64,000 nucleotides of DNA from a virus (lineage: Duplodnaviria; Heunggongvirae; Uroviricota; Caudoviricetes): IMG/VR virus record IMGVR_UViG_3300037307_000441. The stretch is one strand, 5' to 3'. The notes under the pieces were generated by a model. It was not told the origin of the DNA. It did not search any database and saw only the letters and a program-made list of their open reading frames with translations. Both the position numbers and the translations under genes were made by a program. This document shows, one piece after another, positions 390 through 50,706 of this stretch; within the stretch, counting starts at the first letter, position 1, and every line of letters begins with the position of its first letter.

Positions 390-824
390 ATGAACAAATC
401 AGAAATTCAAATCGGTAATTACATTAATTACGAACAAACTACGCACCAAGTTGATGAGTTACATTCAGACAAAGTTATTCATCATTGGTTAAAATCCGGA
501 TCAGATGGATATGTTACATCTTATGAACAAATATCTCCAATTGAGATATCAGATGAAGAACTAACAAAATTTGGATTCGAAAGATTTAAGAAAAAAGATT
601 CGCTGGTTAGTTCAGAATTATTGGACTATTGGGAAAAAAGATATGGGGAAGTTGATGAAATAGGAGTGCGACCAGCATTCATAATATGGACTGATAGAAA
701 GGTAAGTTATTTTTCAATGAAGAGTTTAAATAAACATACAGATAAAAAGTTTAAATATGTGCATGAATTACAACAACTATTTAAACTACACTCCGATAGA
801 GATTTAGTATATGAAGATAAATAA
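390..824 (+). CDS. hypothetical protein
   Basis: 144-aa ATG-started ORF; no recognisable motifs. Confidence 0.4.
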   Translation: MNKSEIQIGNYINYEQTTHQVDELHSDKVIHHWLKSGSDGYVTSYEQISPIEISDEELTKFGFERFKKKDSLVSSELLDYWEKRYGEVDEIGVRPAFIIWTDRKVSYFSMKSLNKHTDKKFKYVHELQQLFKLHSDRDLVYEDK

Positions 825-1506
825 TTATTTTGATAAAATATATGTTCTTAACCTACACAAAAGAACTGATAGGTGGATCGATATTGAAAGAAGGCTAAAA
901 AGATTTGGAATCGAATTTGAAAGATTTGGTGCAACGGATGGGTCCGTCATCAAGCCAATATGGGAAAAATTTCAAAATCAATATTTTACAACACCAAATT
1001 ATTTGGCCTGTGCCATATCTCACTTATCAATATATAAAGATGCTGTTAGTAAAAACTATTCTAGAATTTTAATTATTGAAGATGATGTTTTAATTAATCA
1101 GAATGTTCATCAAATTTTTGATAACACCGAAATTCCAGAATGGGAAGATATTTTTTATATGGGTTATATACCATTATCAGATGATTTAAGTATGTGGACC
1201 TATCAAATTGTAAATGAATATATTTCTGAAAAAATATTCAGGCCGAAAAATCTATGGGGATTATATGCCTATGGGCTAACAAATAATATGATGAAAGAAC
1301 TTTTGGAAGTTTACGATAATCACTTCCCAATGGAAATAGATAGGTATCTTGTTGATCATATACAACCTAGAAAAAAATCAATTGGAATATCCCCGCAATT
1401 ATTTTCTTGTCAAGATATCTATTCAGATAACATGAATGACTTTCAAGTAAATATGTTACAAAGGTCGGTGGATTCAAGATTCGCATTATTAAGTGATTAT
1501 GTATAA
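811..1506 (+). CDS. glycosyltransferase family 25-like (LPS/galactosyltransferase-type)
   Basis: N-terminal IYVLNLHKRTDRW...FERFGATDGS matches the GT25 'IYVINLxxSxDRR...F..AVDG' signature; DD motif downstream. Confidence 0.6.
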   Translation: MKINNYFDKIYVLNLHKRTDRWIDIERRLKRFGIEFERFGATDGSVIKPIWEKFQNQYFTTPNYLACAISHLSIYKDAVSKNYSRILIIEDDVLINQNVHQIFDNTEIPEWEDIFYMGYIPLSDDLSMWTYQIVNEYISEKIFRPKNLWGLYAYGLTNNMMKELLEVYDNHFPMEIDRYLVDHIQPRKKSIGISPQLFSCQDIYSDNMNDFQVNMLQRSVDSRFALLSDYV

Positions 1507-4428: not shown

Positions 4429-5331
4429 ATGTCAAGTATTTATCCATATATATCAAATAGAATTTGTAAAGAATGTGGTGGTCAAATTACTATAAAACAA
4501 AAAAGGGATATTGATAATGAATATTGTTCTCGTGAGTGTTATAATAAATTTAGAAGAGTTACTAGACCAATCAAAATAAATTTAAAATCAGGAAACATTT
4601 GTTTAAGATGTAAAAAGACATTTGTTCCCACTAGAAATACATTAGGTATGTATTGTTCTTATGCTTGTTCCAATGGCGCCAAAGAAGTATCATATAAAGT
4701 TAATTGCAAATGTTGTGGTAAGGAATTTATTGTTAAAAACATAGCAGAACTAAAAAGAGGACATTATCAATATTGTTCTAACGAATGTAGGAAAAGAAAG
4801 TATAATATAAACGAATCTTTTTTTGATAATATAAATTCTGATTCAGTATATTGGATGGGTGTTATATGGTCTACAATAAAATCTAATAAATACAATAAAA
4901 TAAATTTATTATCTTCTAAAAAGGAAATATTAGAAGAGTTTAATAAAGCTTTAAATAGTAATTACCCTATTAAAAACTCTAGTAACTCTGCATTTATTTT
5001 AAGAATAACATCCCTTAAATTAATTGAATCATTATCTAAATATGGAATGAGATGTGATTTATATCAAGAATTTCCAGATATACCGAAAAATTATATTAAA
5101 GATTTCATAAGAGGATATTTTGATACCGAAAATGGCTTTTTATTTAAAGACAATAATAAAACAGTCGTTTCGGTGAGAGGAAAAAGTTCAAAGTTAATGA
5201 GATATATGTCTGAATACTTAAATGCTAAATTGGTTCCTGATAAAGGTGAGTGGGTCTTAGTATCTTTCAATTTTAAGGATAAAATTGATGGCGCTCCAAG
5301 GTTGGAAAGTAAATGGGAAAAGATCAATTAA
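4429..5331 (+). CDS. triple CxxC zinc-ribbon protein with LAGLIDADG-like C-terminal region (possible homing-endonuclease relative)
   Basis: three ~40-aa repeats, each CxxC...YCSxxC; C-terminal FIRGYFDTENGF resembles a LAGLIDADG motif; ACATAAATAAACTAC motif 8 nt upstream. Confidence 0.4.
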   Translation: MSSIYPYISNRICKECGGQITIKQKRDIDNEYCSRECYNKFRRVTRPIKINLKSGNICLRCKKTFVPTRNTLGMYCSYACSNGAKEVSYKVNCKCCGKEFIVKNIAELKRGHYQYCSNECRKRKYNINESFFDNINSDSVYWMGVIWSTIKSNKYNKINLLSSKKEILEEFNKALNSNYPIKNSSNSAFILRITSLKLIESLSKYGMRCDLYQEFPDIPKNYIKDFIRGYFDTENGFLFKDNNKTVVSVRGKSSKLMRYMSEYLNAKLVPDKGEWVLVSFNFKDKIDGAPRLESKWEKIN

Positions 5332-12902: not shown

Positions 12903-15900
12903 ATGAAAAAGACAATTATGATGTCACTTCTATCACTTTTAGTGACGTTCACCACGTTTGGTCAGATTACAACATCTACCATATCGGGAGTGGTGAAAAA
13001 TGAGAAAGGTGATGTGTTGGCCGGAGCATCGGTACACGCCCAACATCAACCCACGGGTACCGATTATCGAACGACAACAACCAAGTCCGGTGGTTATACA
13101 ATACCCGCTGTCAGACCAGGTGGTCCGTATCTAATCCACGTTTCATATGTTGGGTACAAAACTAAAGAAGTCACAGAAGTAAATACCTCTTTAGGTTTGA
13201 CAACAAACGTGGATATTGTTTTAGTAGAAGAATCAAAAACATTAGGTGAGGTTACTGTTGTAGGAACCAGAAATAATACCTTTTCTAAAGACAAAACTGG
13301 TGCCTCCCAACAATTTGGTAGAAGAGAGTTGCAGACTATACCTATTGTTGGCGCTAGAACAATTGATGGTATTACTAAATACAACCCATTTGGTGATGGT
13401 AGATCTTTCGGTGCACAAGATTCGAGAATGAATAATTTCACCATTGATGGATCTCAATTTAACAATGGATTTGGTTTGGGTTCTTCAGCACAGGCTGGTG
13501 GTAGAACTGGGTCAACCGCAATATCATTAGATGCTATTGACCAACTACAGCTTAATATTGCGCCATTTGATATTCGCCAAAGTGGATTTACAGGTGCTGG
13601 TATTAATGCAGTAACAAGATCTGGTACAAATAATGTAGAAGGATCTTTTTATAGAACAAATAGAAATAACACTTCTTCTTATGTTGGTGACAAAGCTTAT
13701 AATGTGCCTGTTACTTCTTCAAAATTTGATGAAGAAGTTTGGGGATTCCGCCTAGGAGCACCTATCATTAAAAATAAATTATTTATTTTTGGTAACTACG
13801 AAAGCTTAGTAAGAACAGAGCCAGGAACAACATGGATATCAGATGGTTCACCATTATCAGGTTCACAAATAAGTCGAGTTAAATATTCAGATATGCAAAC
13901 TCTCTCTAATTTTATGAGAGATAAGTTTGGATATGAAACTGGTCCATGGGAAGGATATAGCAATGCTAATGAATCTAAGAAATTCTTAGTTAGAGCAGAC
14001 TGGAATATTAATGAAAAGCATAAGTTAACTGCTAGATATGTTCATCACAATTCATTTGCAGAAATTAACATATCCAATTCACAATCAGCGGGTGCTGGTA
14101 ATAGAACAACACAGTTCAATGCAATGTCTTTCAAAAATAGTGGATATTTAATTGAAGATAATACCCGTTCTGCGGTTCTTGAATTAAATTCTAAATTTTC
14201 AAATACATTACATAATAATTTAATTGTTGGTTATGACAAACAACTTGAGAATAGAGGATATCTTAGTCCAATGTTCCCAACAATTGATATTAGAGAAGGT
14301 TCGGCTACTTATACTTCAGTAGGTTTTGATCCATTCACTCCTAGTAACAAGTTAGATTATGGAACTTTCCATATTACTAACAATATGACTAAGTATTTGA
14401 ATAAACATACTTTAGTATTCGGGGCAAATTTTGAAAGCTTTAAGTCTAATAATCTTTTCTTTCCGGCTTCTAATGGTGTTTATATTTTTAACAGTTTGGC
14501 TGATTTTTATACAGCAGCTAATCAATCATTGGCTAATGGTGGAGCACCATCAGCATTTGCTCCAGCTAGATTTCAATTAAGATATTCGGCATTACCAGGT
14601 GGGGTAGAACCAATGCAAGTTTTAAAATCAAGTAGATTTGATTTTTATGGACAAGATGAATGGAACTTAAATCCTGATTTGAAATTGACATTTGGATTAA
14701 GAGGTTCTATAATTGGTTTTGACAACACAGCTTTGGAAAACCCAACAGTGACAGCAATGACTTTTGCGAATGGTGAAAAATTCAATACAGGAACGCTACC
14801 AAAAACTCAGTTATTGTGGGAGCCTAGATTTGGATTTAACTACGATGTTAAAGGTCAGAAAAAAACACAAATTAGAGGCGGTACCGGTATCTTTACTGGA
14901 AGACCTCCTTATGTGTTTATCTCTAACCAAGTTGGGAATAATGGTGTGTTAACTGGATTCATTGATGTTAGTGGTGCTGCCGCAAATGCTTTTGGATTTA
15001 CAGCAGATCCTAATAAATATTTTATACCATCAACACCCACCCTTCCTTCTACATTTGATTTAGCGTTCACTGACCCTAATTTCAAATTCCCACAAGTTTG
15101 GAAAACAAACATCGCTGTTGACCAAAAATTACCTTTCGGATTTATTGGTTCAATAGAATATTTGTATAACAAAACCTTAAATGGTGTTCATTATTATAAT
15201 GCGAATTTAGACAATCCGATTGGTACATTAAGTGGTGGTGGTCTTAATATAACATCTGTTGATAATAGATGGAGATTTGCAAACAATGATGCTGGGGTTA
15301 GAGTTAATGATAATGTTTCTATGGGTGCGGTATTAACCAATATTGATGGTGCATATCATCAATCATTAACAATGAGACTTGAATATCCTGTTAAAAAAGG
15401 ATTATGGGGGTCAATAGCTTGGACAACTGCTGAATCATTTGATTATATGAGCGCTGGTTCTATCGCAAGTGGTAGCTGGCAAAGTATAAAATCAGTTAAT
15501 GGTAACAATAATGTAAATTTAAGTTTATCCGATAACTTTATTAAAAACAGATTTGTTGGATTATTGGGTTATAGATTTGAATACGGTAAGAAATGGGGTG
15601 GAGCCACTACGGTAACTCTTGGTTATATCGGCACACAAGGTGGAGCATTCTCTTACTTTGTAGCGGGTGACTTAAATGGTGATAGAGTTAGAGATAATGA
15701 ATTGATATTTGTTCCTTTAAAAGGATCAGATGTTAAGTTTCAACCTTTAACTGTGGGAACCACAGTATATACAGAGGCTGATCAGCAAGCAGCATTTGAT
15801 GCATTCATCAACCAGGATCCTTATTTGAAAAATAGAAGAGGTCAATATGCTGAAAGAAATGGTGGAATATTACCTTATCTACACAGATTTGATTTATCAA

Positions 15901-16199
15901 TTGCACAAGATTTCTTTGTTAAAGTAAAAGAACATAAGAACACATTCCAAGTTAGATTTGATATCTTAAACTTTGGCAATATGGTAAATGATAATTGGGG
16001 GGTTTCACAAAGAGCAGCCGCCCCTGCTTTGTTAAACTTTGTTAGTTATAACACAGTAGGCGAACCTACTTACAGATTATCAACTCAAAAATTTGTTGAT
16101 GGTACAACAACACTGGTTAGAGATTCTTACCAAAGAAATTCATCAGTATTTGATGTTTGGTCAGCACAATTAGGTATTAGATATATCTTCGGTAGATAA
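12903..16199 (+). CDS. TonB-dependent outer-membrane receptor-like protein (SusC/CarboxypepD_reg-type N-terminus, plug and beta-barrel)
   Basis: 1098 aa; signal peptide; N-terminal ISGVVKNEKGDVLAGASVH...GGYTI carboxypeptidase-regulatory-like domain typical of Bacteroidota TBDRs; long Gly/aromatic-rich barrel; C-terminal aromatic-rich strand; visibly GC-richer than neighbours. Confidence 0.8.
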   Translation: MKKTIMMSLLSLLVTFTTFGQITTSTISGVVKNEKGDVLAGASVHAQHQPTGTDYRTTTTKSGGYTIPAVRPGGPYLIHVSYVGYKTKEVTEVNTSLGLTTNVDIVLVEESKTLGEVTVVGTRNNTFSKDKTGASQQFGRRELQTIPIVGARTIDGITKYNPFGDGRSFGAQDSRMNNFTIDGSQFNNGFGLGSSAQAGGRTGSTAISLDAIDQLQLNIAPFDIRQSGFTGAGINAVTRSGTNNVEGSFYRTNRNNTSSYVGDKAYNVPVTSSKFDEEVWGFRLGAPIIKNKLFIFGNYESLVRTEPGTTWISDGSPLSGSQISRVKYSDMQTLSNFMRDKFGYETGPWEGYSNANESKKFLVRADWNINEKHKLTARYVHHNSFAEINISNSQSAGAGNRTTQFNAMSFKNSGYLIEDNTRSAVLELNSKFSNTLHNNLIVGYDKQLENRGYLSPMFPTIDIREGSATYTSVGFDPFTPSNKLDYGTFHITNNMTKYLNKHTLVFGANFESFKSNNLFFPASNGVYIFNSLADFYTAANQSLANGGAPSAFAPARFQLRYSALPGGVEPMQVLKSSRFDFYGQDEWNLNPDLKLTFGLRGSIIGFDNTALENPTVTAMTFANGEKFNTGTLPKTQLLWEPRFGFNYDVKGQKKTQIRGGTGIFTGRPPYVFISNQVGNNGVLTGFIDVSGAAANAFGFTADPNKYFIPSTPTLPSTFDLAFTDPNFKFPQVWKTNIAVDQKLPFGFIGSIEYLYNKTLNGVHYYNANLDNPIGTLSGGGLNITSVDNRWRFANNDAGVRVNDNVSMGAVLTNIDGAYHQSLTMRLEYPVKKGLWGSIAWTTAESFDYMSAGSIASGSWQSIKSVNGNNNVNLSLSDNFIKNRFVGLLGYRFEYGKKWGGATTVTLGYIGTQGGAFSYFVAGDLNGDRVRDNELIFVPLKGSDVKFQPLTVGTTVYTEADQQAAFDAFINQDPYLKNRRGQYAERNGGILPYLHRFDLSIAQDFFVKVKEHKNTFQVRFDILNFGNMVNDNWGVSQRAAAPALLNFVSYNTVGEPTYRLSTQKFVDGTTTLVRDSYQRNSSVFDVWSAQLGIRYIFGR

Positions 16200-16217
16200 T
16201 TTAAAAAAAAAATTAAA

Positions 16218-16247
16218 AGAGTCACAAAAACTGTGACTCTTTTTTTT
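16218..16247 (+). terminator. rho-independent terminator
   Basis: AGAGTCACA-AAAAC-TGTGACTCT hairpin followed by a 7-T run right after the receptor gene. Confidence 0.6.
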
Positions 16248-16292: not shown

Positions 16293-16493
16293 ATGTTTAG
16301 AGATGTTATGTTTAGAGATAGTGGTGGTGACATTGACTACAATTACAAAAGTGACTTACAAGAAAGTAAAGAATTATTATTGAGAGTAATAATGGCAAAG
16401 TGTAAAATATCTGATTCTGATTTACATGATATAAGTATTATAAAAAACAAATTAAGAGAGGAAAACATAAACGAAATTATAAATGAAAAGTAA
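16293..16493 (+). CDS. hypothetical small protein
   Basis: 66-aa ORF. Confidence 0.35.
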   Translation: MFRDVMFRDSGGDIDYNYKSDLQESKELLLRVIMAKCKISDSDLHDISIIKNKLREENINEIINEK

Positions 16494-16908
16494 GCAAGTT
16501 ATAGTCCTACGAAAAGACCTCAATATGAGGAAAGGTAAAATGGTTGCTCAAGGCGCTCATGCTTCAATGAAGGTTATCTTAGATATGATGACTGGTCAGG
16601 GAGGAATTAAATATTTCTCTTCAGGAGGACAAGTAGGTGAGATAACCAAATATTTAAAATTTGAAGGTGGCACCGCTATCAATGATTGGATCACAGGTTT
16701 GTTTACTAAAGTTTGTGTTTCTGTTGATTCAGAAGAAGAATTGATTTCTATCTATGATAAAGCAAAAGAAAAAGGAATACCTTGCTCAATAATTGAAGAT
16801 GCTGGATTAACTGAATTTAATGGTATTCCAACAAAAACTGCGGTTGCTATTGGACCAGCTTGGTCTGAAGAAATCGACGAAATAACAGGGCATTTAAAAT
16901 TATTATAA
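16483..16908 (+). CDS. pth2: peptidyl-tRNA hydrolase, PTH2 family
   Basis: VIVLRKDLNMRKGKMVAQGAHAS...GIPCSIIEDAGLTEF...KTAVAIGPA...ITGHLKLL matches the PTH2 pattern throughout, including the C-terminal TGhLKLL. Confidence 0.75.
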   Translation: MKSKQVIVLRKDLNMRKGKMVAQGAHASMKVILDMMTGQGGIKYFSSGGQVGEITKYLKFEGGTAINDWITGLFTKVCVSVDSEEELISIYDKAKEKGIPCSIIEDAGLTEFNGIPTKTAVAIGPAWSEEIDEITGHLKLL

Positions 16909-16912
16909 TACT

Positions 16913-17431
16913 ATGGGAATTCATGATGGTTTAAGTAAAATAGGAACAGGTCCTGGTAGAAACTTTAAAGATAAATATAAAGGAACTTTAATTTTTGATC
17001 CTTCAAAAAGGAAAAAACCTGTACACACATATATAGGTGACACTGTTTATATAACAGGTTGGTATGTCATTCATGATGGTAAGGAAGTGCCACTTTATTA
17101 TCAAGATGCAGAATATGTTGAAACACACAAATGTATGAATGGAGATTATGCATTTAATGGAATTGAAGTTGAATACACTATAGATAATTGGTGTGAGATG
17201 GGGTTACAAAAAGGCCAAGAACAATATAGTGGTACTTATCAAATGGGATATGGAACAGTAGCGAGGCTAATTCACAAAGAGGTAGTTGAGGAAGAATTAG
17301 AAAGGTGTATTAAATCACCTTATTACTTCGCGACAAACTATTTAATTGTAAATGGAGAAAAATTCTCTACAAGACTAAGTGAAGAAGAATTTAATACTAA
17401 GTTTAACCAAATACTAAATCAATTAAAATGA
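16913..17431 (+). CDS. hypothetical protein
   Basis: 172-aa ORF. Confidence 0.45.
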   Translation: MGIHDGLSKIGTGPGRNFKDKYKGTLIFDPSKRKKPVHTYIGDTVYITGWYVIHDGKEVPLYYQDAEYVETHKCMNGDYAFNGIEVEYTIDNWCEMGLQKGQEQYSGTYQMGYGTVARLIHKEVVEEELERCIKSPYYFATNYLIVNGEKFSTRLSEEEFNTKFNQILNQLK

Positions 17432-17715
17432 AAGAAATTTTTGTAGGAGAAGGATGCTTTGGCCCAATTGTTAGAATAGATGGAGAATCTATGCATCTTG
17501 GAGAATATGATGAGAGAACTGATGAAGACATTGATAAGATGAGAATGGATATTATTCAGGAGCTAATTAATAATAGAAAAAATATTAGTCTTTATGATTG
17601 GTCTCAGATAATTGAGATGATAGCAAATGCATCACATTGGAATCTCGTAAGTGAGTCTAATGATTCTTGTGATCAATGTGGAAATTATAATTGGGATAGA
17701 ACATATGAAAAGTAA
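17428..17715 (+). CDS. hypothetical protein
   Basis: 95-aa ORF, ATGA overlap with upstream gene. Confidence 0.4.
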   Translation: MKEIFVGEGCFGPIVRIDGESMHLGEYDERTDEDIDKMRMDIIQELINNRKNISLYDWSQIIEMIANASHWNLVSESNDSCDQCGNYNWDRTYEK

Positions 17716-17929
17716 TTGTGGCTTTTGTGGTGGTGAAGTAAAAACATCTACAACCACATCAAGTACAACATCGGGAGTATATTTAAAACCAGGTGTTTAT
17801 ATCAATGCTGGTAAATACCGAGGGTGTGGAAACTGTGGAGAAATATCTCCAGTTTGTCAAAATTGTTTAGAAAAAATTCTTTGTTTAAGTTGTTCAAGGT
17901 CTGAAAAAATCGAAGAATGTTTATCGTAA
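17705..17929 (+). CDS. Cys-rich small protein (multiple CxxC)
   Basis: MKSNCGFCGG...CGNCGEISPVCQNCL...CLSC; track ORF starts 17651, first plausible ATG 17705. Confidence 0.4.
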   Translation: MKSNCGFCGGEVKTSTTTSSTTSGVYLKPGVYINAGKYRGCGNCGEISPVCQNCLEKILCLSCSRSEKIEECLS

Positions 17930-18216
17930 TTCACTATACTGAAAAAAGAATAATCTTATTAAAATATTCAACCGACCTTGATGAATCTATAGAATATTTC
18001 ATAAGAAATACCGGATCAGATAGAAAAGAGATTACCAAAAAGATGATTTCTTATGGATACTATGAAAAATCAAACATTTATATATTAGAGACAAATCATA
18101 ATCTTTGGACAAGCCAGACAATTCCTTATTATATAAAGACTCCAAAAATTGAGAATATTACAAATTTTATAAAGTTAGAATTACGAAACATTATGATAGA
18201 TAAAATTATTAAGTAA
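17917..18216 (+). CDS. hypothetical protein
   Basis: 99-aa ORF. Confidence 0.4.
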   Translation: MFIVIHYTEKRIILLKYSTDLDESIEYFIRNTGSDRKEITKKMISYGYYEKSNIYILETNHNLWTSQTIPYYIKTPKIENITNFIKLELRNIMIDKIIK

Positions 18217-18221
18217 GTAAT

Positions 18222-18572
18222 ATGTATGCTATTTCTTCAATTCGTTCCACTGATCACCCATCTTTATTTATAGATATTTATAATCTTAAATTACTATTCT
18301 ACTCAGATAATATAGAAGAGTGTGTTAGATTTTTATCCAAATTGATAAATGTTAAATCGACAAACTTAGATTCTATTTTAAATAATATTCAAAATAATGG
18401 ATATGATAATATATACTCACCCGAATACTTGTACTTTTTTGTAGATTTAAATTTTAAGAATATAGAAGATAATTTAATTAAAATGGCATATTCTAAGATC
18501 AAGGATATAATAAGAGAAAAATCAATCAATGATATAATAAAAAAAGGAGACCGAGGTCTCCTATTTGATTAA
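18222..18572 (+). CDS. hypothetical protein
   Basis: 116-aa ORF; GGAGACC/GGTCTCC hairpin overlaps its last codons. Confidence 0.4.
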   Translation: MYAISSIRSTDHPSLFIDIYNLKLLFYSDNIEECVRFLSKLINVKSTNLDSILNNIQNNGYDNIYSPEYLYFFVDLNFKNIEDNLIKMAYSKIKDIIREKSINDIIKKGDRGLLFD

Positions 18573-18764
18573 AAGTAGATGATGTCTCCAACTTGCCAAT
18601 CTTCTTCTGGCTCATCATTGGTATCTTTCGGGTCTAGGTAGTAGGATTTCATATTTTTTTATTTTTATATATTAATATTTCATTTTTTAACATTTTTTGT
18701 TAAATAATTAAGTGAAAGTATGCCAAAAATTAAACTGAATATTGCTCCTAAAATTAAATCCATG

Positions 18765-18850
18765 TGCCTCAGGCGGGAATCGAACCCGCACTCACGTTTC
18801 GGTGAACAAGATTTTAAGTCTTGCGTGTCTACCTATTCCACCACCAAGGC
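18765..18850 (-). tRNA. tRNA-Leu (anticodon TAA), type II
   Basis: reverse complement GCCTTGG-TG-GTGGAATAGGTAGACAC-GCAAGA CTTAAAA TCTTG-long variable arm-TGCGGG TTCGATT CCCGC-CTGAGGC-A; cloverleaf folds by hand. Confidence 0.75.
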
Positions 18851-18854
18851 GTTG

Positions 18855-18928
18855 TGGACTCTGAGGGACTTGAACCCCCGACCCTCTGATTATGAGTCAG
18901 ACGCTCTAACCAACTGAGCTAAGAGTCC
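18855..18928 (-). tRNA. tRNA-Met/fMet/Ile2 (anticodon CAT)
   Basis: reverse complement GGACTCT-TA-GCTC AGTTGGTTA GAGC-G-TCTGA CTCATAA TCAGA-GGGTC-GGGGG TTCAAGT CCCTC-AGAGTCC-A. Confidence 0.75.
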
Positions 18929-20826: not shown

Positions 20827-21028
20827 AGAAGTGGATGATCTCACTATTGGCAAAACTTATGAAGTTATACAAATAAGGGATTTTCCAGAAAAAGACATTT
20901 GTATCAAAAGTAATGATGGTTATAACTGGTGGTTTGGGCAAGTTGGTTCATCACAACCATGGACAATGTTCTTTATAACCGAAACAGAATTTATAAGAAA
21001 TCAAAAAATTGAAAAATTAATATCATGA
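20792..21028 (+). CDS. hypothetical protein
   Basis: 78-aa ORF overlapping upstream gene end by 35 nt. Confidence 0.35.
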   Translation: MLKIGDKIRCIKEVDDLTIGKTYEVIQIRDFPEKDICIKSNDGYNWWFGQVGSSQPWTMFFITETEFIRNQKIEKLIS

Positions 21029-21576
21029 TAGATTATGGAAGGATAGATAGATCAATTAGATTTTATGAATCCTTTGGATTCAACAGAATCGAATCTCCTT
21101 GGACGGTAACAAAGGAGATATCAGGAATTACAAAACCACCAGATAAAATTGATTGGGAGATTAAAGGTAAGAATAAAGTATTGGTTGCGTCTGGCGAACA
21201 AAGTTTTTTATATTTATATTTAAAGGGGTTTTTGCCAAAAGGAAAATATCAAACCATAACCCCTTGCTTTCGTGATGAACCATTTGATAAAACTCATACC
21301 AAATATTTTATTAAAAATGAATTAATAATTACTGATGAAGTAACACCTAAAAAATTAGATTATATCATTGAGGTTTGTAAAGAATTTTTTGAAAATGAAA
21401 TTAATTCAAAAATAGATATTTCAAAAACCGACATTGGATATGACTTAGAAATAAATGGTATAGAATTAGGTTCTTATGGAATAAGAAGTTGTGAATATTT
21501 AGATTGGATATATGGAACAGGATTGGCGGAACCAAGATTTACACTAGTAAAAAATTCTTCTAAAAGGGGTATTTAA
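21025..21576 (+). CDS. class II aminoacyl-tRNA-synthetase-like core fragment (AsnA/AspRS motif-2-like)
   Basis: EQSFLYLYLKGFLPKGKYQTITPCFRDE resembles class II motif 2 (...FRNE/FRDE); only 183 aa, so not a full synthetase. Confidence 0.4.
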   Translation: MIDYGRIDRSIRFYESFGFNRIESPWTVTKEISGITKPPDKIDWEIKGKNKVLVASGEQSFLYLYLKGFLPKGKYQTITPCFRDEPFDKTHTKYFIKNELIITDEVTPKKLDYIIEVCKEFFENEINSKIDISKTDIGYDLEINGIELGSYGIRSCEYLDWIYGTGLAEPRFTLVKNSSKRGI

Positions 21577-24021: not shown

Positions 24022-24792
24022 ATGAAAACAATTTATGATATATTAGAAAGAGATTTAATCTTTTTTGACTTAGAAACAACAGGAACGGATTTGAAAAGAG
24101 ACCGAATAGTTGAAATATGTGCAATTAAATATAAGAAAAATCGTGGAAAAGAAATCTTACATAGATATTTGAATCCTGAAACTGAAATTGATCCTGTAGC
24201 AGTGGAAATGCACGGATTAACAAATGAGTTTTTAAAAGATTATCCATCATTATCTGAAGTTGCAGATGAAATATATAATTTTTTTAAAGGATGTGATTTG
24301 GGTGGATATAATTGTATAAATTTTGATATACCATTCTTGTTTGAAGAGTTATCAAGATGTAAAAAGTTTCTAAATGTTTTTAATGTTAATATTATTGATT
24401 CCTACAATCTATTAAATAAATGCGAGCCACGACGATTAAAAGATGTTTATAAAAACTTTTTTGGTGTTGAATTTGATAATCACCATAGTGCAGAAGCAGA
24501 TATTGAAGCAACAGTTAAAGTATTTGAAAAACAAATAGACGCTTATAAACTTGAAGATAAATCAATAAATGATATTTCGTCTATAATAAGAACAAGTGCA
24601 AATGGTGAATTAATGGTTGATATATCAGGTTGGTTCAAAAAGAAAAATGGTACATATCTTTTTGGTAGAGGAAAGCACAAAGACAAACCAGTTAAAGAAA
24701 ATGTATCATATTTGGAATGGCTGGTTAATGAAAGTGACATTGAAAATAATTCTAAAGCTGTGGCAAAAATATTATTAGAAAAGTTAAAATGA
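24022..24792 (+). CDS. DnaQ-like 3'-5' exonuclease (DEDDh family)
   Basis: LIFFDLETTGTD (Exo I), HGLTNEFL (Exo II region), HSAEADIEAT (Exo III, YxxxD/H). Confidence 0.75.
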   Translation: MKTIYDILERDLIFFDLETTGTDLKRDRIVEICAIKYKKNRGKEILHRYLNPETEIDPVAVEMHGLTNEFLKDYPSLSEVADEIYNFFKGCDLGGYNCINFDIPFLFEELSRCKKFLNVFNVNIIDSYNLLNKCEPRRLKDVYKNFFGVEFDNHHSAEADIEATVKVFEKQIDAYKLEDKSINDISSIIRTSANGELMVDISGWFKKKNGTYLFGRGKHKDKPVKENVSYLEWLVNESDIENNSKAVAKILLEKLK

Positions 24793-25709
24793 AATTAAAA
24801 CATATTATTAAAGCTCAACAATTTGATAGAGATTTATTGAATGATATATTCTCTAACTCAAATGAAATGGAATCAGTATTTAAAAATGGGCAATCTAAAT
24901 TATTAAGTGGTAAAATATTAGCCACAGTATTTTATGAACCATCAACAAGGACAAGATTATCATTTGAATCGGCAATGATGAGATTGGGTGGTAGGATAAT
25001 AACTACTGAAAATGCTAAAGAATTCTCATCTGCAGCTAAAGGAGAAAACATAGAAGATACAGTTAGAGTAATGCAATCTTACGCAGATGCCATCGTTATA
25101 AGACATCATGAATCTGGGACCGCAGAAAGGGCTAGCATGTTTTCAAATGTTCCAATCATAAATGCTGGAGATGGACCTGGACAACACCCAACACAGTCTC
25201 TAACCGATTTATATACAATACAAAAAGAATTAGGACAAGTTGATGATATTTCAATTGCTATGGTTGGTGACCTAGCAAATGGTAGAACAGTTCGTTCTCT
25301 TTGTTATCTATTATCAAAATATAAAAATGTTAAAATATTCTTTGTATCACCTGACGTTGTTAAAATGAAAGATGATATCAAACAATTTTTAACAAAGAAT
25401 AATGTTTCATTTGTAGAGGAAACTGATTTGAAAAAAGTGGCTCAAGTAGTTGATGTCATTTATCAAACCAGAATACAGAAAGAAAGATTTGGAGATAGAA
25501 TGGACGAATACTATATGGCTTCGGGTAAGTATATTATCAATGATGAAATATTATCTGTGATGAAAGAAAAATCTATTATCATGCACCCATTGCCAAGATT
25601 AGATGAAATATCCAATTCAGTTGATAGTGATCCAAGAGCAGCTTATTTTAGACAAGCACAAAATGCGGTATATGTTAGAGCAGCATTATTAAAACATTTA
25701 TTAGTATGA
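24789..25709 (+). CDS. pyrB: aspartate carbamoyltransferase catalytic subunit
   Basis: FYEPSTRTRLSFESA (STRTR carbamoyl-phosphate motif), GDGPGQHPTQSL, MHPLPR; ATCase-like loops; no pyrI nearby. Confidence 0.85.
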   Translation: MKLKHIIKAQQFDRDLLNDIFSNSNEMESVFKNGQSKLLSGKILATVFYEPSTRTRLSFESAMMRLGGRIITTENAKEFSSAAKGENIEDTVRVMQSYADAIVIRHHESGTAERASMFSNVPIINAGDGPGQHPTQSLTDLYTIQKELGQVDDISIAMVGDLANGRTVRSLCYLLSKYKNVKIFFVSPDVVKMKDDIKQFLTKNNVSFVEETDLKKVAQVVDVIYQTRIQKERFGDRMDEYYMASGKYIINDEILSVMKEKSIIMHPLPRLDEISNSVDSDPRAAYFRQAQNAVYVRAALLKHLLV

Positions 25710-27786: not shown

Positions 27787-28188
27787 ATGACAAAACATTT
27801 TTCAACATCATCATTCTTTGTCTTTTCAAAAGACTTGAATTATGGCGAGACACTTTTTGGAGGTAAACTTTTAGCCGAAATAGACTGTGAAGCTGCTAAA
27901 GTAGCAAGATCATTAGTTTATGATACCGGAGCAGATAATGCTGTTACTGCTTCTTTTGATAGAGTAGATTTTAAAGCTCCTGCTAAAAAAGGAGATTTAA
28001 TTGTTATGGAAGCAGATATTGTAGACGTAGGAAGAACATCTATTAAAATTGATGTTGGTGTATGGATTAAAAAAGGCCCTGATAAAAATGACTGGATTCT
28101 TATTTGCAATGCACATACAACATTTGTAGCATTGAAGGACGGAAGACCTTATCCGCACAAGAAAACAATGAAAGATATTAACATATAA
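27787..28188 (+). CDS. hotdog-fold acyl-CoA thioesterase (YciA/YbgC-like)
   Basis: GETLFGGKLLAEIDCEAAKVA...VTASFDRVDFKAPAKKGDL...VGRTSIKIDVGV pattern of acyl-CoA hydrolases. Confidence 0.65.
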   Translation: MTKHFSTSSFFVFSKDLNYGETLFGGKLLAEIDCEAAKVARSLVYDTGADNAVTASFDRVDFKAPAKKGDLIVMEADIVDVGRTSIKIDVGVWIKKGPDKNDWILICNAHTTFVALKDGRPYPHKKTMKDINI

Positions 28189-28508: not shown

Positions 28509-28589
28509 GCCCCGATGGTGTAACGGTAGCCACGGTAGCCTTAGGAGCTACTATCTTCGGATGTGTCGGTTCGAATCCGACTTGGGGCA
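28509..28589 (+). tRNA. tRNA-Leu (anticodon TAG), type II
   Basis: GCCCCGA-TG-GTG TAACGGTAGC CAC-G-GTAGC CTTAGGA GCTAC-variable hairpin ATCTTCGGAT-GTCGG TTCGAAT CCGAC-TTGGGGC-A. Confidence 0.7.
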
Positions 28590-28604
28590 CAAAAAAAATA
28601 AACT

Positions 28605-29198
28605 ATGAAAGTATTAAATATAATAGGCCACCCTTCTAAAAAAAGTTTCAATCATGCCATTTATGAAACGATAAATGATTTCTGCTTTCGGAATAGAATT
28701 GAGGTAAAAAATATTGACTTATATAAAGATAATTTTGATCCGGTAATTCGTGAGGATGAATCTGAAAAAAATAAAAGTCTAATAGAAAAGTATAAAGAAA
28801 TGATTAAATGGAGTGATGTAATTGTAATAACATCACCTGTTTGGTGGTTTCGTTGTACTACGATGATTGAGGGTTTTTTTGATAAAGTTTTTGTACCAGG
28901 ATTCGCTTATAAATTTAAATCAATTACAAAGAAATACGGTTATCCTGTTCCTCTACTAAAAGATAAAAAGGTAATCACATTTTTAACACATGGTGCGCCA
29001 GCTCTTCCTGTTAAAACTATTTATGTAAACTCTGTTAAGTTAAGAATATTATTGGGTGTTTATTCATTCTGTTTTGGATGGTTTAAACAAAGTATTTATC
29101 AATTTTGGTCTGTGCCATTTATAGAACATAATGATAGAATTATGTATTTAGAAAAAGTTAAAATGATAATGTTAAACATTTATCAAAAAGTAAAATAA
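28605..29198 (+). CDS. flavodoxin-like NAD(P)H dehydrogenase (quinone)-like protein
   Basis: MKVLNIIGHPSKKSFNHAI...SDVIVITSPVWWF pattern of NQO/Flavodoxin_2 family. Confidence 0.6.
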   Translation: MKVLNIIGHPSKKSFNHAIYETINDFCFRNRIEVKNIDLYKDNFDPVIREDESEKNKSLIEKYKEMIKWSDVIVITSPVWWFRCTTMIEGFFDKVFVPGFAYKFKSITKKYGYPVPLLKDKKVITFLTHGAPALPVKTIYVNSVKLRILLGVYSFCFGWFKQSIYQFWSVPFIEHNDRIMYLEKVKMIMLNIYQKVK

Positions 29199-30167: not shown

Positions 30168-31247
30168 ATGAAAAGTAAAAGTAAAAAATTTTTGAAGGAT
30201 TATTTAAATGCATATGCTCCTGTATCTCAGGAATTTGAGGGACAAAGGGTTTGGATAGATTACATAAAAGAATATGTAGACGAAATGCATCAAGATACTT
30301 ATGGCACTGTGTGGGGAGTTATTAAAGGAAAGTATAAGAAAGGTGATGTCCCATATAAAGTTGCTATCGAAGCCCACTGTGATGAAATATCATGGATAGT
30401 TTCACATATCTCTGACGATGGTAAACTGAGTGTTAATCGTTTTGGTGGTTCTGATGTTCAGATTGCACCTTCAAAAAAAGTGGTAGTTCATACTAGAAAA
30501 AATGGAAGAGTACCAGGTGTTTTCGGATGGACAGCAATTCATCTTAGGAGGGGGAAAGATACTACTCCAGAATTAAAAAATCTCTTTATTGATCTTGGAT
30601 ATGATAGTAAAGAAAAAGTTAAGAATTTGGGGATAGAAGTTGGTAATATTGTTACCTTCTCAGACGAATTCGAAATTATGGGTGATTACTATGTTGGTAA
30701 ATCAGTAGATAATAAAATAGGTGGATTTGTTATAGCTGAAGTTGCACGAAAAATAAAAGAGAATAACATTGAGCTTCCTTTTGATCTTTATATAATCAAT
30801 GCTGTACAAGAAGAAGTCGGACTACATGGTGCGAAAATGGTAGCCCAAAATATTAAACCTGATGTAGCACTTATTACTGATGTTTGTCATAACACAGACA
30901 CCCCAGGAATTGATAAAAAACAAGAGTGTGATATTAGGGGTGGTAAAGGTGCGGTATTTGAGCATACAGCACAAAATCATAGAATGTTATTAGAGTTAAT
31001 GAGAGAAGTCGCAGACAAAGAAGAGATTCCATATCAACTAGAAGTCGGCTCTTATGGAAATGATACTATGGGATTCTTCTTAGCAAATGGAGGTACTCCA
31101 ACCGCCATTATTGCTACACCATTAAAATACATGCATACAACCGTTGAAATGGCTCATAAGGATGATGTTAAATCTGTAATTGATATTTTTTATCATACTT
31201 TACAAAATATTAAAAATGGTCAAAAATTCACTTATCATGAACTTTAA
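30168..31247 (+). CDS. M42-family glutamyl aminopeptidase / FrvX-like peptidase
   Basis: AHCDEISWIVSHISDDGKLSVNRFGG, VGKSVDNKIG, GAKM, metal-binding D/E/H pattern and ~360-aa size typical of M42. Confidence 0.7.
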   Translation: MKSKSKKFLKDYLNAYAPVSQEFEGQRVWIDYIKEYVDEMHQDTYGTVWGVIKGKYKKGDVPYKVAIEAHCDEISWIVSHISDDGKLSVNRFGGSDVQIAPSKKVVVHTRKNGRVPGVFGWTAIHLRRGKDTTPELKNLFIDLGYDSKEKVKNLGIEVGNIVTFSDEFEIMGDYYVGKSVDNKIGGFVIAEVARKIKENNIELPFDLYIINAVQEEVGLHGAKMVAQNIKPDVALITDVCHNTDTPGIDKKQECDIRGGKGAVFEHTAQNHRMLLELMREVADKEEIPYQLEVGSYGNDTMGFFLANGGTPTAIIATPLKYMHTTVEMAHKDDVKSVIDIFYHTLQNIKNGQKFTYHEL

Positions 31248-33929: not shown

Positions 33930-34106
33930 ATGTCGAAGATTTATAAACATCAAAGTATTGGGAATCTGGTAGTAATTGTTGAGCAGAGTTTAGAATCAGC
34001 AAAAAATATCATCAGAGAATTATTGGATGAAATGGGGTTAACAAATGAAGAACTCAATGTAGAAGAAGTAAACAAACCACTCATTTTAGAAAATAATTAT
34101 CAATGA
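33930..34106 (+). CDS. small hypothetical protein (58 aa)
   Basis: read manually; stop overlaps ATG of rmlC (ATGA). Confidence 0.3.
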   Translation: MSKIYKHQSIGNLVVIVEQSLESAKNIIRELLDEMGLTNEELNVEEVNKPLILENNYQ

Positions 34107-34657
34107 AGATATTAAAAACAGATTTCGAAGGATTATTTATAATTGAACCGAACATCTTCTCGGATAAGAGGGGGTGTTTTTTTGAATCATATTCCGAAAA
34201 GGCATTTAGAGAAAATGGTATAATATACAATTGGATTCAAGATAATCAATCTGAGTCGTGTTACGGAACAATAAGAGGATTGCATTTTCAAAAAGGCGAA
34301 TGGGCTCAAGCTAAGCTAGTTAGGTGTGTGTATGGTAAAGTATTGGATGTTGCGGTTGATATAAGAGAAGGATCACCGACTTACGGAAAATATTTTTCAA
34401 TTGAACTCTCTGGTGAAAATAAAAAAATAGCTTTGATACCAAGAGGATTTGCACATGGATTCTCGACCTTATCCGACTACGCAATCTTTCAATATAAATG
34501 TGATAATTTTTATAACAAAGAATCCGAGGGTGGAATTCTATACAACGATAAAACATTAAATATCAACTGGAAGGTAGAATATCCTATTGTATCTGAAAAA
34601 GATAAATTAAATATGAGTTTCAACGACTATGATTTATTTTCAAGACATATTATTTAG
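34103..34657 (+). CDS. rfbC: dTDP-4-dehydrorhamnose 3,5-epimerase
   Basis: LKTDFEGLFIIEPNIFSDKRGCFFESY...GTIRGLHFQ...QAKLVRCVYGKVLDVAVDIR...SPTYGKYFSIELS...RGFAHGF canonical RmlC cupin motifs. Confidence 0.85.
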   Translation: MKILKTDFEGLFIIEPNIFSDKRGCFFESYSEKAFRENGIIYNWIQDNQSESCYGTIRGLHFQKGEWAQAKLVRCVYGKVLDVAVDIREGSPTYGKYFSIELSGENKKIALIPRGFAHGFSTLSDYAIFQYKCDNFYNKESEGGILYNDKTLNINWKVEYPIVSEKDKLNMSFNDYDLFSRHII

Positions 34658-34663: not shown

Positions 34664-34960
34664 ATGAAATATTTTCCTATTCAAAAATCAAATTTTTATA
34701 AAGCATACAACAAACTAAAGGACTTAAAAAGCTACGCCTTAGATTGTTATGACTTTTCTACAGCTTCGTCATTGAGGGAAATGGAAAGGGATTTATTTTT
34801 AAAATTTGATGATTTTCATGAGAAGTGGGAATTTGATGATTCTAAAGAAATTTTTTTTGATTTAAAATCATTTGAAACCGAGATAAAAGAAATTACAGAA
34901 GCATCAACTTGCACTGCTTTTAGAAGATTTTATAATTTAAATAATTTGCTATATGAATAA
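34664..34960 (+). CDS. hypothetical protein
   Basis: 98-aa ORF. Confidence 0.4.
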   Translation: MKYFPIQKSNFYKAYNKLKDLKSYALDCYDFSTASSLREMERDLFLKFDDFHEKWEFDDSKEIFFDLKSFETEIKEITEASTCTAFRRFYNLNNLLYE

Positions 34961-35606
34961 GATAAAAGAAAAATTAGACAATTATTTAGAGTTTGATTCC
35001 TCTAAATTGTTTATTGACAAATTGGTTAGAGTATTTGGTGGTGCTATCAGGGATATTATCGCAGATATGCCTATTAATGATGTTGATATTTTGGTTGGTG
35101 CGAAAAGCCTTAAAATGATAGAATCGATTTTGATATCCAACGGATACATATATAGTGATTATTTATGTGGCAAAGATTTGAATCTCATCTATACTAATAT
35201 GAAGGTTATACATGAACCAAGAACTTTTATAAAAGGAAATAAAATAGTTCAACTCATACGACCAGCAATAAAAACAGACCATAGGTTTATGACATATACC
35301 ACATACGAAAAAGGATTTCAAGAACTTCTGTCGAATGTAGATTTAACTTGTTGTGGTGTGAGTTATGATGGTAGTAATCTTTATGAAAATACAGATGGCG
35401 GTATTCTATCTTGCTTAACTAAAACATTTCAAACAAATCTCGGAACTATGTATAATCATGATAGAATCATACATAGAAAAGTTAAATTACAAGATAGAGG
35501 CTGGAGGGAAATATACTCTACGTCTGATATTCGTGATATTAAAATCGAATCATTTTTATCAGAAAAAAATATTGAATATACAAAAGAATATGTTATATTA
35601 AATTAA
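34953..35606 (+). CDS. nucleotidyltransferase with poly(A) polymerase/CCA-adding head domain
   Basis: LVRVFGGAIRDIIADMPINDVDILVGA matches the class II tRNA-NTase head motif (vGGaVRDlLLg.p.kDiDi); short at 217 aa. Confidence 0.5.
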   Translation: MNKIKEKLDNYLEFDSSKLFIDKLVRVFGGAIRDIIADMPINDVDILVGAKSLKMIESILISNGYIYSDYLCGKDLNLIYTNMKVIHEPRTFIKGNKIVQLIRPAIKTDHRFMTYTTYEKGFQELLSNVDLTCCGVSYDGSNLYENTDGGILSCLTKTFQTNLGTMYNHDRIIHRKVKLQDRGWREIYSTSDIRDIKIESFLSEKNIEYTKEYVILN

Positions 35607-43533: not shown

Positions 43534-44355
43534 ATGAAAAGAACCATCGTATTCGCAGGACTCGTGATGTCCCTTATCACAATGACAAGTTGCCACAGTG
43601 TCGCTCCTAATGGTGACCAAGAAGCAGTATTAGTAATGAAACCTTGGATTTTTGGACACGGAGGTGTTCACAAAGATGCGGTTTCATCTGGACGAGCATG
43701 GTTGGCTCTATCAACCGATTATGTGAAATTCACAATCACACCAACAACCTACACTGAAAGTTTTGATGATATGATGACTGATGACAACACACCCGTTGAC
43801 TTCGCGGCTTATCTGAAACTACAAATCAAAAAAGGTGAGACACCTGTTCTCCTAGAAAAATTTGGTGAAAAATGGTATGAGAACTCAGTAGCTCCTACTT
43901 TCCGAACTATGGTTCGTGACAAAGCCTCTATGTTTAAAATGTTTTCTCTTACTAGCGACCGTGAAGTTCTTGCTAGTATTCAAAAAGAAGTAAAAGATAA
44001 AATCACTGACTATTGTAATAAGATTGGTCTTCCTGTAACTGTCATGGAAGTTACTATTGGTAAAGTAACACCTCCAGAAGAAGTTCTAGAAGAAACACGT
44101 CGAACTGCCGCACAAAACCAAAGCAAATTGACACAAGACGCTCGTGCTGCCGCTGAAATATCACGTAAACAAGCTGAAATTAATAAGGCTATAGCGGATA
44201 AGGCATATCAAACGCAAATGAATATGACTACATTTGAGTACCTTGAACTTCGTAAACTTGAAATTGAGAAAGAAAAAGTTGAATTGGTTCGTGATAAACA
44301 AAATGTCACAATCGTAATGGGCCAAGGTCTACAACCAACTATTCCAATTAAATAA
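43534..44355 (+). CDS. SPFH/band-7 family lipoprotein
   Basis: lipobox LITMTSC; central region with the SPFH pattern and a C-terminal coiled AQNQSKLTQDARAAAEISRKQAEINKA; GC-richer. Confidence 0.65.
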   Translation: MKRTIVFAGLVMSLITMTSCHSVAPNGDQEAVLVMKPWIFGHGGVHKDAVSSGRAWLALSTDYVKFTITPTTYTESFDDMMTDDNTPVDFAAYLKLQIKKGETPVLLEKFGEKWYENSVAPTFRTMVRDKASMFKMFSLTSDREVLASIQKEVKDKITDYCNKIGLPVTVMEVTIGKVTPPEEVLEETRRTAAQNQSKLTQDARAAAEISRKQAEINKAIADKAYQTQMNMTTFEYLELRKLEIEKEKVELVRDKQNVTIVMGQGLQPTIPIK

Positions 44356-50434: not shown

Positions 50435-50508
50435 TCCTCCTTAGCTCAGTTGGTTAGAGCATCTGACTGTTAATCAGAGGGTCGTAGGTTCAAGTCCTAC
50501 AGGGGGAG
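50435..50508 (+). tRNA. tRNA-Asn (anticodon GTT)
   Basis: TCCTCCT-TA-GCTC AGTTGGTTA GAGC-A-TCTGA CTGTTAA TCAGA-GGGTC-GTAGG TTCAAGT CCTAC-AGGGGGA-G. Confidence 0.85.
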
Positions 50509-50511
50509 CAA

Positions 50512-50583
50512 GGTTCCATAGTTCAATGGATAGAACGGGTGACTTCTAATCTCCAGATCCAAGTTCGATTCTTGGTGGGACTA
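50512..50583 (+). tRNA. tRNA-Arg (anticodon TCT)
   Basis: GGTTCCA-TA-GTTC AATGGATA GAAC-G-GGTGA CTTCTAA TCTCC-AGAT-CCAAG TTCGATT CTTGG-TGGGACT-A; one T:T mismatch in anticodon stem, two G:U in acceptor. Confidence 0.7.
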
Positions 50584-50620
50584 CAAAACAAAAATGGTTT
50601 ATTTGTATATAAGTTAAATC

Positions 50621-50706
50621 GCCCTGGTGGTGGAACTGGTAGACACGCGGGACTTAAAATCCCGTTCGCCGAAACGCGAGTGCGGGTTCGATTCCCGCCT
50701 GGGGCA
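50621..50706 (+). tRNA. tRNA-Leu (anticodon TAA), type II
   Basis: GCCCTGG-TG-GTGGAACTGGTAGACAC-GCGGGA CTTAAAA TCCCG-long variable arm-TGCGGG TTCGATT CCCGC-CTGGGGC-A; a divergent second copy of the Leu-TAA gene at 18765. Confidence 0.8.

Follow-up and report, generated by a model that had tools for sequence, protein, structure and literature searches.

The locus at 16483..16908 (+) of a 64,000-nucleotide stretch of viral DNA (IMG/VR record IMGVR_UViG_3300037307_000441; the whole stretch is hereafter the window) raises the question of why a virus-like genome should carry a peptidyl-tRNA hydrolase of the PTH2 type, and what such an enzyme would do there. The gene, pth2, is an exact ATG-started open reading frame (ORF) of 141 codons plus stop, and on the evidence of its sequence and predicted structure it encodes a genuine, and apparently active, Pth2-type peptidyl-tRNA hydrolase. 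We consider it likely that the product is a catalytically competent Pth2 of a large phage, probably one growing on Bacteroidota, that supplements the host enzyme in tRNA recycling. The basis of this reading is the family, the fold, the conserved active site, purifying selection, membership of a viral clade and the linkage seen in relatives.

An earlier note on the window had assigned the product to the PTH2 type from a motif match, and sequence, fold and active-site residues now agree on this identity. The search with the PTH2 profile that the note had proposed gives a match to PF01981 with an E-value of 1.2e-33 and 116.2 bits (cutoff 23) over profile positions 2-115 of 115, and the product also passes TIGR00283 (arch_pth2) at 106.4 bits against a cutoff of 82. 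The Pth1 profile (PF01195) gave no match in the Pfam scan even at E <= 1. In a sequence search of the PDB, the nearest solved structure is Methanocaldococcus jannaschii Pth2 (2zv3, E 1e-28), followed by the Pth2 enzymes of Pyrococcus, Sulfolobus, Archaeoglobus, Thermoplasma and human (Bit1). Chance cannot account for matches of this strength. The product further matches phrog_1866 end to end (E 1.2e-33); this family carries the label 'unknown function' and is evidently the Pth2 family, and therefore phage annotation based on PHROG overlooks Pth2.

The AlphaFold2 model of the product, built as a monomer on 118 homologues, has a mean predicted local distance difference test (pLDDT) score of 95.8 and a predicted template modelling (pTM) score of 0.87. 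When this model was searched against the PDB with Foldseek, the top 14 matches were all Pth2 (E 1.6e-12 to 2e-6), with TM scores, normalised to the target, of 0.83-0.90 to Pth2 crystal structures, and the match after these had an E-value of 0.5; structure prediction and structure search, the second check suggested by the note, thus also return the Pth2 fold. Canonical Pth2 has 116-120 amino acids, four strands and four helices (PMC11202043). The model displays this alpha/beta fold, a four-stranded sheet with four helices, together with the additional elements of an insertion. In the HMMER alignment, K19 and D106 of the product are aligned with K18 and D86 of Sulfolobus solfataricus Pth2 (1xty), which we take to be the essential catalytic residues of Pth2; Fromant et al. 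are said to have shown in 2005 that both are essential. The positions R10, D12, K19, H26, D106, G108, T110, T117 and T119 do not vary across 155 aligned sequences (the query, the Sulfolobus enzyme, 72 loci from viruses, 80 from genomes and one more from a metagenome), so that viral, bacterial and archaeal sequences are all represented among those that retain K19 and D106.

The sole difference from archaeal Pth2 is an insertion of 27 residues (residues 36-62), and the linker between helix 1 and the conserved Trp69 comprises 34 residues in the phage protein as compared with 15 in that of S. solfataricus. In the model, which is confident here, the insertion forms a short helix and two additional short strands (E37-40, H42-46, E54-57). 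Linker length ranges from 8 to 42 residues in viral relatives and from 17 to 31 in cellular ones, and from 21 to 39 among the 118 nearest proteins, in which the majority residue has a frequency of 0.26 in the linker versus 0.79 in the core. As the linker is the variable and poorly conserved part of the family, the insertion has the look of a surface elaboration that the fold tolerates; it may have a specific function, but nothing indicates one. As regards the start codon, the conserved first beta-strand is matched by residues 4-13 (KQVIVLRKDL), among which are the invariant R10, D12 and L13, whereas the Joint Genome Institute (JGI) call of an identical gene (P0002, 127 amino acids; loci L002 and L003) begins at Met15 and omits 16483..16524. 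Because a start at Met15 removes this strand with R10 and D12, the 141-residue form is correct and is the one that should be used in expression work.

A ratio of nonsynonymous to synonymous substitution rates (dN/dS) of 0.15-0.22 (Nei-Gojobori; 0.15 and ~0.21 versus relatives of 79% and 72% identity, respectively) and a G+C content at third codon positions (GC3) of 0.23, fully adapted to an AT-rich genome, show that pth2 is kept by purifying selection and did not enter the genome recently. Relatives are abundant: 5,338 proteins of a large protein database match the product at E <= 1e-5, and the top 120 of these all contain PF01981 and are 127-167 amino acids in length. At least 72 viral contigs in IMG/VR, many of them 100-508 kb, encode relatives of 38-66% identity, and a homologue of 29-57% identity is present in 34 of 50,697 GenBank phage records, where many are annotated 'peptidyl-tRNA hydrolase'. 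The phages concerned include Ralstonia RsoM2USA, Xanthomonas XacN1 and Xoo-sp13, Agrobacterium Atu_ph07, Salicola SCTP-2, the Sinorhizobium phiM12 group, the mycobacteriophages Myrna and Baka, and huge metagenomic phages, to which the BFVD database adds RaK2, CcrBL9, VH7D, Klosneuvirus, Hyperionvirus, Yasminevirus, Pithovirus and fowlpox virus. In a crude neighbour-joining tree on core columns, 13 of the 14 sequences nearest to the query are viral, and the core identity of the query reaches 77% with viral sequences, compared with a median of 61% for cellular bacterial ones, 58% for M. jannaschii and 45% for Sulfolobus. Judged by these sequence comparisons, the gene belongs to a viral clade and nests among viral, not bacterial, sequences.

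Beyond pth2, 152 related loci have almost nothing in common with the window, the only case being L009, a 508-kb viral contig with two ORFs at 26-27% identity. L157, whose pth2 is 79% identical, has DUF2452, outer-membrane barrel, small ORFs and PTH2 arranged as in the window. Two relatives come from metagenome-assembled genomes (MAGs). L096, a 37.7-kb contig of a Promethearchaeota MAG (JAFGOA010000025.1), encodes a phage-like long-form Pth2 of 51% identity, with an RNA ligase of the family discussed below 4 kb downstream, and is either a virus of an Asgard archaeon or a mis-binned phage. L094 (Leptospirales MAG, 4.1 kb) carries Pth2 and a homologue of one more ORF of the window (27787..28185, 42% identity), and has the appearance of a phage fragment that was binned wrongly.

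The earlier note had contrasted Pth2, as the archaeal and eukaryotic enzyme, with the Pth that bacteria normally use. The latter half of this statement stands, but Pth2 is not solely of archaeal/eukaryotic type. A scan of one genome per species recovered 161 loci with a long-form Pth2 at 47-55% identity to the query, in many Chitinophaga, in Bacteroides/Phocaeicola, in Kofleriaceae/Haliangiales/Myxococcota, in Steroidobacter and in others. The flanking genes are common to species within each lineage, and because of this synteny across species these are resident genes and not prophage cargo. Their presence in bacteria, including Bacteroidota, weakens the textbook framing of Pth2 as 'archaeal/eukaryotic only'; since the long form is chromosomal in that phylum, the likely host phylum may own a Pth2 already.

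We conclude that the window belongs to a large phage, in agreement with the virus-like context recognized in the earlier note. The G+C content is 0.25-0.37 in 2-kb windows and 0.289 over the whole 64 kb, short ORFs predominate, and a Pfam family is lacking for many of those scanned. A PHROG scan of 97 window ORFs matched 27 families at E <= 1e-6, among them a DNA polymerase exonuclease subunit, tail and virion structural proteins, an HNH endonuclease, a 5'-3' deoxyribonucleotidase and a nucleoside 2-deoxyribosyltransferase, and viral contigs of IMG/VR, up to 508 kb in length, carry the closest Pth2 relatives. The 64-kb window showed no gene for a capsid or terminase protein, and the viral assignment thus rests on such indirect evidence and on the relatives. 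A megablast of positions 10-30 kb against the 50,697 phage records gave no match. An origin from a giant eukaryotic virus was considered and rejected, as the compact genes, bacterial in style though without Shine-Dalgarno sequences, the PHROG matches, the bacterial-type tRNAs and the nearest relatives on phage contigs all speak for a phage.

A host among Bacteroidota is probable because of the translation starts, which are poor in Shine-Dalgarno sequences and rich in A, and because of an outer-membrane barrel gene upstream of pth2. A Shine-Dalgarno-like core precedes 3 of 97 ORFs (background, 7%), and positions -13 to -11 upstream of the window ORFs are 62-63% A; A-rich upstream positions without a Shine-Dalgarno sequence are a pattern typical of Bacteroidota. 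The upstream gene (12903..16199, +) encodes a protein of 1098 amino acids for which a signal sequence is predicted and which combines a CarboxypepD_reg domain with a large outer-membrane beta-barrel. This TonB-dependent-receptor-like architecture lies directly upstream of the pth2 cluster, and the combination of CarboxypepD_reg with such a barrel is likewise typical of Bacteroidota. A sigma-70 promoter scan of the window returned 17 matches against 19.7 in shuffled sequence, as expected for a Bacteroidota-type system. As to the barrel protein itself, a counterpart of 1090 amino acids occupies the same position in L157 (5239..8511), and a match was found in only one of the 50,697 phage records (an unannotated 6-kb fragment); it is an unusual phage cargo.

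The window contains further genes concerned with tRNA. ARAGORN identifies eight tRNAs, at least seven having been claimed before, and Rfam returns the same eight, with Leu-UAA and Met-CAU duplicated: tRNA-Leu (UAA) and tRNA-Met (CAU) at 18764..18928 (-; Rfam RF00005, 58-74 bits), tRNA-Leu (UAG) at 28509..28590 (+), a cluster of Asn (GUU), Arg (UCU), Leu (UAA) and Ser (UGA) at 50435..51049 (+), and the second tRNA-Met (CAU) at 63275..63361 (+). The fragment resembling an aminoacyl-tRNA synthetase (aaRS), which was also part of the earlier claim, is real. It is a class II aaRS-like protein of 183 amino acids (21025..21576, +) that matches phrog_4806, a phage family of ~190 amino acids annotated 'histidyl tRNA synthetase', over its full length (E 8.4e-39), and has weak Pfam tRNA-synt_2/2d matches (E 3e-4). 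A complete synthetase would be far longer, and a single-sequence search with it against the PDB gave no significant match.

The CCA-type nucleotidyltransferase of the earlier note is real as well, with a class II fold and about half the length of a full CCA-adding enzyme. This Pol-beta nucleotidyltransferase of 217 amino acids (34953..35606, +) contains a GGxxRD...DxD motif, and evidence from its sequence is weak (PolyA_pol head, E 0.004; phrog_2244, tRNA nucleotidyltransferase, E 2e-4), with nothing significant in the PDB by single sequence or by profile (E ~0.05 to CCA enzymes). PF26128 is present in its homologues, accompanied in a few longer ones by PF01743. The identity was resolved only by structure search: with an AlphaFold2 model of pLDDT 88.3, the top 41 PDB matches in Foldseek are all class II CCA-adding enzymes/tRNA nucleotidyltransferases or poly(A) polymerases (best E 1.6e-5). 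The model covers only the head and neck of the class II CCA-adding fold, about half of these 370-450-residue enzymes, and is best described as a predicted mini class II nucleotidyltransferase of unproven specificity. The family has 363 metagenomic relatives, some on contigs of >200 kb. Taken together, the gene set for translation and tRNA maintenance proposed in the note is present, but it is not a compact module, since pth2, the aaRS-like gene, the nucleotidyltransferase gene and the tRNAs are dispersed over ~50 kb (from 16 to 63 kb) on both strands.

A linkage of pth2 to tRNA genes is demonstrated by the relatives and not by the window itself. We scanned the viral loci with ARAGORN over 10 kb on either side of pth2 and then collapsed near-identical loci, which reduced their number from 72 to 65. 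tRNAs occur within 10 kb of pth2 in 42 of the 72 loci (dereplicated, 37/65) and within 500 bp in 20 (dereplicated, 18/65); 441 of 466 tRNAs lie on the pth2 strand, and arrays of 20-39 tRNAs often enclose pth2. The dereplicated density around viral pth2 is 0.365 tRNA per kb. Genome-wide means in jumbo phages are 4.5-22 tRNAs per genome (PMC7824862), and if a jumbo genome is taken as at least 200 kb, our own arithmetic yields a baseline of at most ~0.11 per kb, so that the enrichment is roughly threefold or more relative to a baseline drawn from the literature. Within the same intervals, tmRNA genes occur near pth2 in four viral loci (L028, L046, L050 and L051). Eight viral contigs (L017, L020, L027, L028, L029, L032, L036 and L076) have tRNAs with a CUA anticodon (amber suppressors, 'Pyl' in ARAGORN) within 10 kb of pth2, which suggests stop-codon-recoding phages.

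Repair genes are a second neighbour of pth2 in relatives. In the query's own clade, an RNA ligase (PF09414), pth2 and a kinase-HAD phosphatase, PNKP (AAA_33 plus HAD_PNKP) follow each other on one strand within ~3 kb in L159 (7363..10341) and L160 (8777..11730), at 72% identity, and in L007 (739..3658) and L008 (884..3803). In L012 and L004 both enzymes are encoded within 5-9 kb of pth2, and on a 354-kb contig PNKP, RNA ligase and a tyrosyl-tRNA synthetase (TyrRS) are found near it. We found no explicit description of the RNA ligase - Pth2 - PNKP cassette in the literature examined. The linkages to tRNA genes and to repair genes support a putative role in tRNA recycling and repair.

We infer the enzymatic activity, substrate range and biological trigger of the pth2 product. 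From its homology with archaeal and human Pth2, the enzyme would bind the acceptor end of a peptidyl-tRNA or N-acyl-aminoacyl-tRNA that has left the ribosome and hydrolyse the ester bond, thereby releasing a free tRNA for recharging. In the infected cell it would supplement host Pth when peptidyl-tRNA accumulates, be it through heavy translation of AT-rich phage mRNAs with the use of phage tRNAs or, alternatively, through stalling and drop-off after host defences have cut, modified or depleted tRNAs, and the outcome would be that host and phage-encoded tRNAs both stay in circulation. Its presumed partners are the phage tRNAs, the mini CCA-type nucleotidyltransferase and the aaRS-like protein, joined in close relatives by RNA ligase and PNKP.

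Several observations weigh against this proposal of a tRNA-recycling Pth2. The nearest tRNAs in the window are 1.9 kb downstream of pth2 and on the opposite strand (the remaining six are 12-47 kb away), and 28 of the 65 non-redundant viral loci are without a tRNA within 10 kb of pth2; moreover, the tRNA-density baseline is a literature figure and not one from the same contigs. Two-round profiles built from the relatives detected neither RNA ligase nor PNKP in the 64-kb window, and the repair context of pth2 is thus borrowed from those relatives. The 27-residue insertion may bear on dimerisation or tRNA binding, and the product (113.8 bits) does not reach the 126-bit cutoff of the Pth2 equivalog NF003314; this shortfall arises because the insertion splits the alignment, and it affects automatic naming alone. 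Finally, no experimental test of any phage Pth2, enzymatic or genetic, was found in the searchable literature.

A narrower version of the same proposal, which we regard as possible though somewhat doubtful, is that Pth2 is a dedicated counter-defence enzyme and the third member of PNKP/RNA-ligase tRNA repair. An anticodon nuclease would cut the tRNA, Pth2 would strip the peptide or amino acid, and the tRNA body would be healed, sealed and reused, with a benefit only in hosts armed with anticodon nucleases. The one-strand cassette of ~3 kb in the closest clade and the gene content of the 354-kb contig are in agreement with such a function, and the same role has been proposed in the literature (PMC7824862), in line with which a counter-defence role of phage Pth2 is plausible; we found no paper linking phage Pth2 to anti-defence. 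Set against this, RNA ligase and PNKP were not found in the window, within 10 kb of pth2 a ligase occurs in only 4 and PNKP in 5 of the 72 viral loci, tRNA arrays are instead the setting of the mycobacteriophage and Sinorhizobium phage homologues, and an action of Pth2 on cleaved tRNAs is hypothetical. In a still more specific form, which strikes us as unlikely, the long-form viral Pth2 would be a specialised third component of RNA ligase - Pth2 - PNKP repair, with the insertion adapting substrate choice. The substrates could then be those that host Pth1 handles poorly, namely nicked peptidyl- or aminoacyl-tRNAs, toxin-N-acylated aminoacyl-tRNAs and phage-encoded or suppressor tRNAs, and, if this were so, loss of pth2 would sensitise the phage to specific tRNA-targeting defences.

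It is quite improbable that Pth2, by hydrolysing N-acetyl-aminoacyl-tRNAs, serves as an antidote to tRNA-acylating GNAT toxins (TacT/AtaT/ItaT type) released on infection and so would restore the pool of aminoacyl-tRNA. Host Pth does reverse TacT (PMC9241777), an N-blocked aminoacyl-tRNA is the standard Pth substrate (PMC11202043), and the active site of the product is intact, but no GNAT toxin or antitoxin context surrounds pth2 in the window or in its relatives, PADLOC gave no match, no paper linking phage Pth2 to GNAT toxins was found, and the activity is already supplied by host Pth1. The notion that pth2 is a passenger captured recently from a Bacteroidota chromosome without a phage-specific role, or a decayed inactive copy, can be all but set aside: a long-form Pth2 of 47-55% identity is indeed a syntenic chromosomal gene in Chitinophaga, Bacteroides/Phocaeicola and Kofleriaceae, and the phage has other host-like genes, the outer-membrane barrel, carbamoyltransferase and M42 peptidase genes among them, but the query nests among viral sequences, with a core identity of up to 77% to these against a median of 61% to genomes, its GC3 is fully ameliorated, its dN/dS is low (0.15-0.22), all catalytic positions are intact and synteny is kept in the 79%-identical relative.

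The immediate surroundings of pth2 are a tight cluster of overlapping or abutting small ORFs (16293..18572, +), of 66 amino acids, pth2 in second place, then 172, 95, an alternative overlapping ORF of 92, 99 and 116 amino acids. The cluster is separated from the outer-membrane barrel gene by a terminator-like hairpin, bidirectional, at 16215..16243, with a stem of 12-13 bp and T-runs following on both strands (consensus scan only), a further terminator-like hairpin from the same type of scan lies near its end (18545-18562), and it is probably one transcription unit. An independent Logan contig (L001) has the same five non-pth2 genes plus pth2 in the same order. Look-ups of the exact sequence of the pth2 product, and of its Met15-truncated JGI form, yielded contigs of 1-2.7 kb only. 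No Pfam, PHROG or PADLOC family was found for those neighbours that were scanned, and PADLOC returned nothing for the nucleotidyltransferase, the aaRS-like protein or pth2 with its five neighbours in the cluster. A role of pth2 as a component of a defence or toxin-antitoxin system was rejected, as neither it nor its neighbours match PADLOC.

Elsewhere in the window, a full-length aspartate/ornithine carbamoyltransferase (24789..25709, +; OTCace_N, E 1.6e-46; OTCace, E 8.9e-32) adjoins an RNase_T-type exonuclease (24022..24792) that also matches a DNA polymerase exonuclease PHROG. Five host-like auxiliary genes at 30168..31247, 34103..34657, 28605..29198, 43534..44355 and 811..1506 (all +) encode an M42 glutamyl aminopeptidase (E 2e-74), a dTDP-4-dehydrorhamnose 3,5-epimerase (E 5e-66), a flavodoxin-fold NAD(P)H oxidoreductase, an SPFH/Band 7 protein and a family 25 glycosyltransferase. 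A homing-endonuclease-like ORF shows a weak LAGLIDADG_3 match (4429..5331, +), and the HNH endonuclease match among the 97 window ORFs is to phrog_1271 (E 2.5e-11).

Phage Pth2 genes have already been described, and the one reported here is a fairly divergent further example, with at most 57% identity to any sequenced phage. Iyer et al. (2021) reported PTH2 across jumbo-phage groups 2 and 3, considered it archaeo-eukaryotic and not of host type, and proposed ribosome rescue after tRNA cleavage (PMC7824862); Morgado and Vicente (2018) found a PTH2-like gene in ~96% of cluster C mycobacteriophage tRNA arrays (PMC5966550); and the genome papers of RaK2 (2013), XacN1 (2018) and AP-J-162 (2024) mention Pth2. 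As the known class spans jumbo phages, mycobacteriophages and giant viruses, the query alone matters little. What is added here is the equation of phrog_1866 with Pth2, the ligase - Pth2 - PNKP cassette, the quantified linkage to tRNA arrays and the chromosomal long-form lineages, of which the cassette and the embedding in tRNA arrays provide genomic support for the published placing of phage Pth2 in a toolkit of tRNA repair and ribosome rescue.

Among known systems, bacterial Pth1 (PF01195) catalyses the same reaction (EC 3.1.1.29) and deals with the same problem of dropped-off peptidyl-tRNA, but is unrelated in sequence and fold, having 186-194 amino acids, seven strands and six helices (PMC11202043). 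An RNA-repair theme has been described for jumbo phages (PMC7824862). The annotated phage Pth2 proteins (RsoM2USA, XacN1, Xoo-sp13, Atu_ph07, SCTP-2, the phiM12 group, Myrna/Baka and Klebsiella RaK2) are full-length homologues of 29-57% identity, encoded by large or jumbo phages with abundant tRNAs and tRNA-processing genes, and the same fold is predicted for them in BFVD. Their hosts are Proteobacteria or Actinobacteria, whereas that of the query phage is probably a member of the Bacteroidota; there is no DNA-level similarity to the 50,697 records, the best protein identity is 57%, and the Pth2 of the mycobacteriophages, the Sinorhizobium phages and Atu_ph07 is of a short form (~113-115 amino acids), whereas that of the query is long. 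In T4-type tRNA repair, PNKP and RNA ligase counter anticodon nucleases, and the closest relatives of the query flank pth2 with both enzymes, whereas neither was found in the query window; to our knowledge, T4 itself is without Pth2. The archaeal enzymes (MJ0051, 2zv3; S. solfataricus, 1xty; Pyrococcus horikoshii, 1wn2) and human PTRH2/Bit1 (1q7s) belong to the same Pfam/TIGRFAM family and fold and share the Lys/Asp catalytic pair and the C-terminal TGxLKLL motif. They are homodimers, and their chains have 115-121 amino acids, whereas the query protein has 141 and is encoded by a phage of a bacterium. The chromosomal long-form Pth2 proteins of Chitinophaga, Bacteroides/Phocaeicola, Kofleriaceae/Haliangiales and Steroidobacter are elongated like the query and retain the same invariant residues, but they are resident cellular genes, whereas the query groups with viral sequences.

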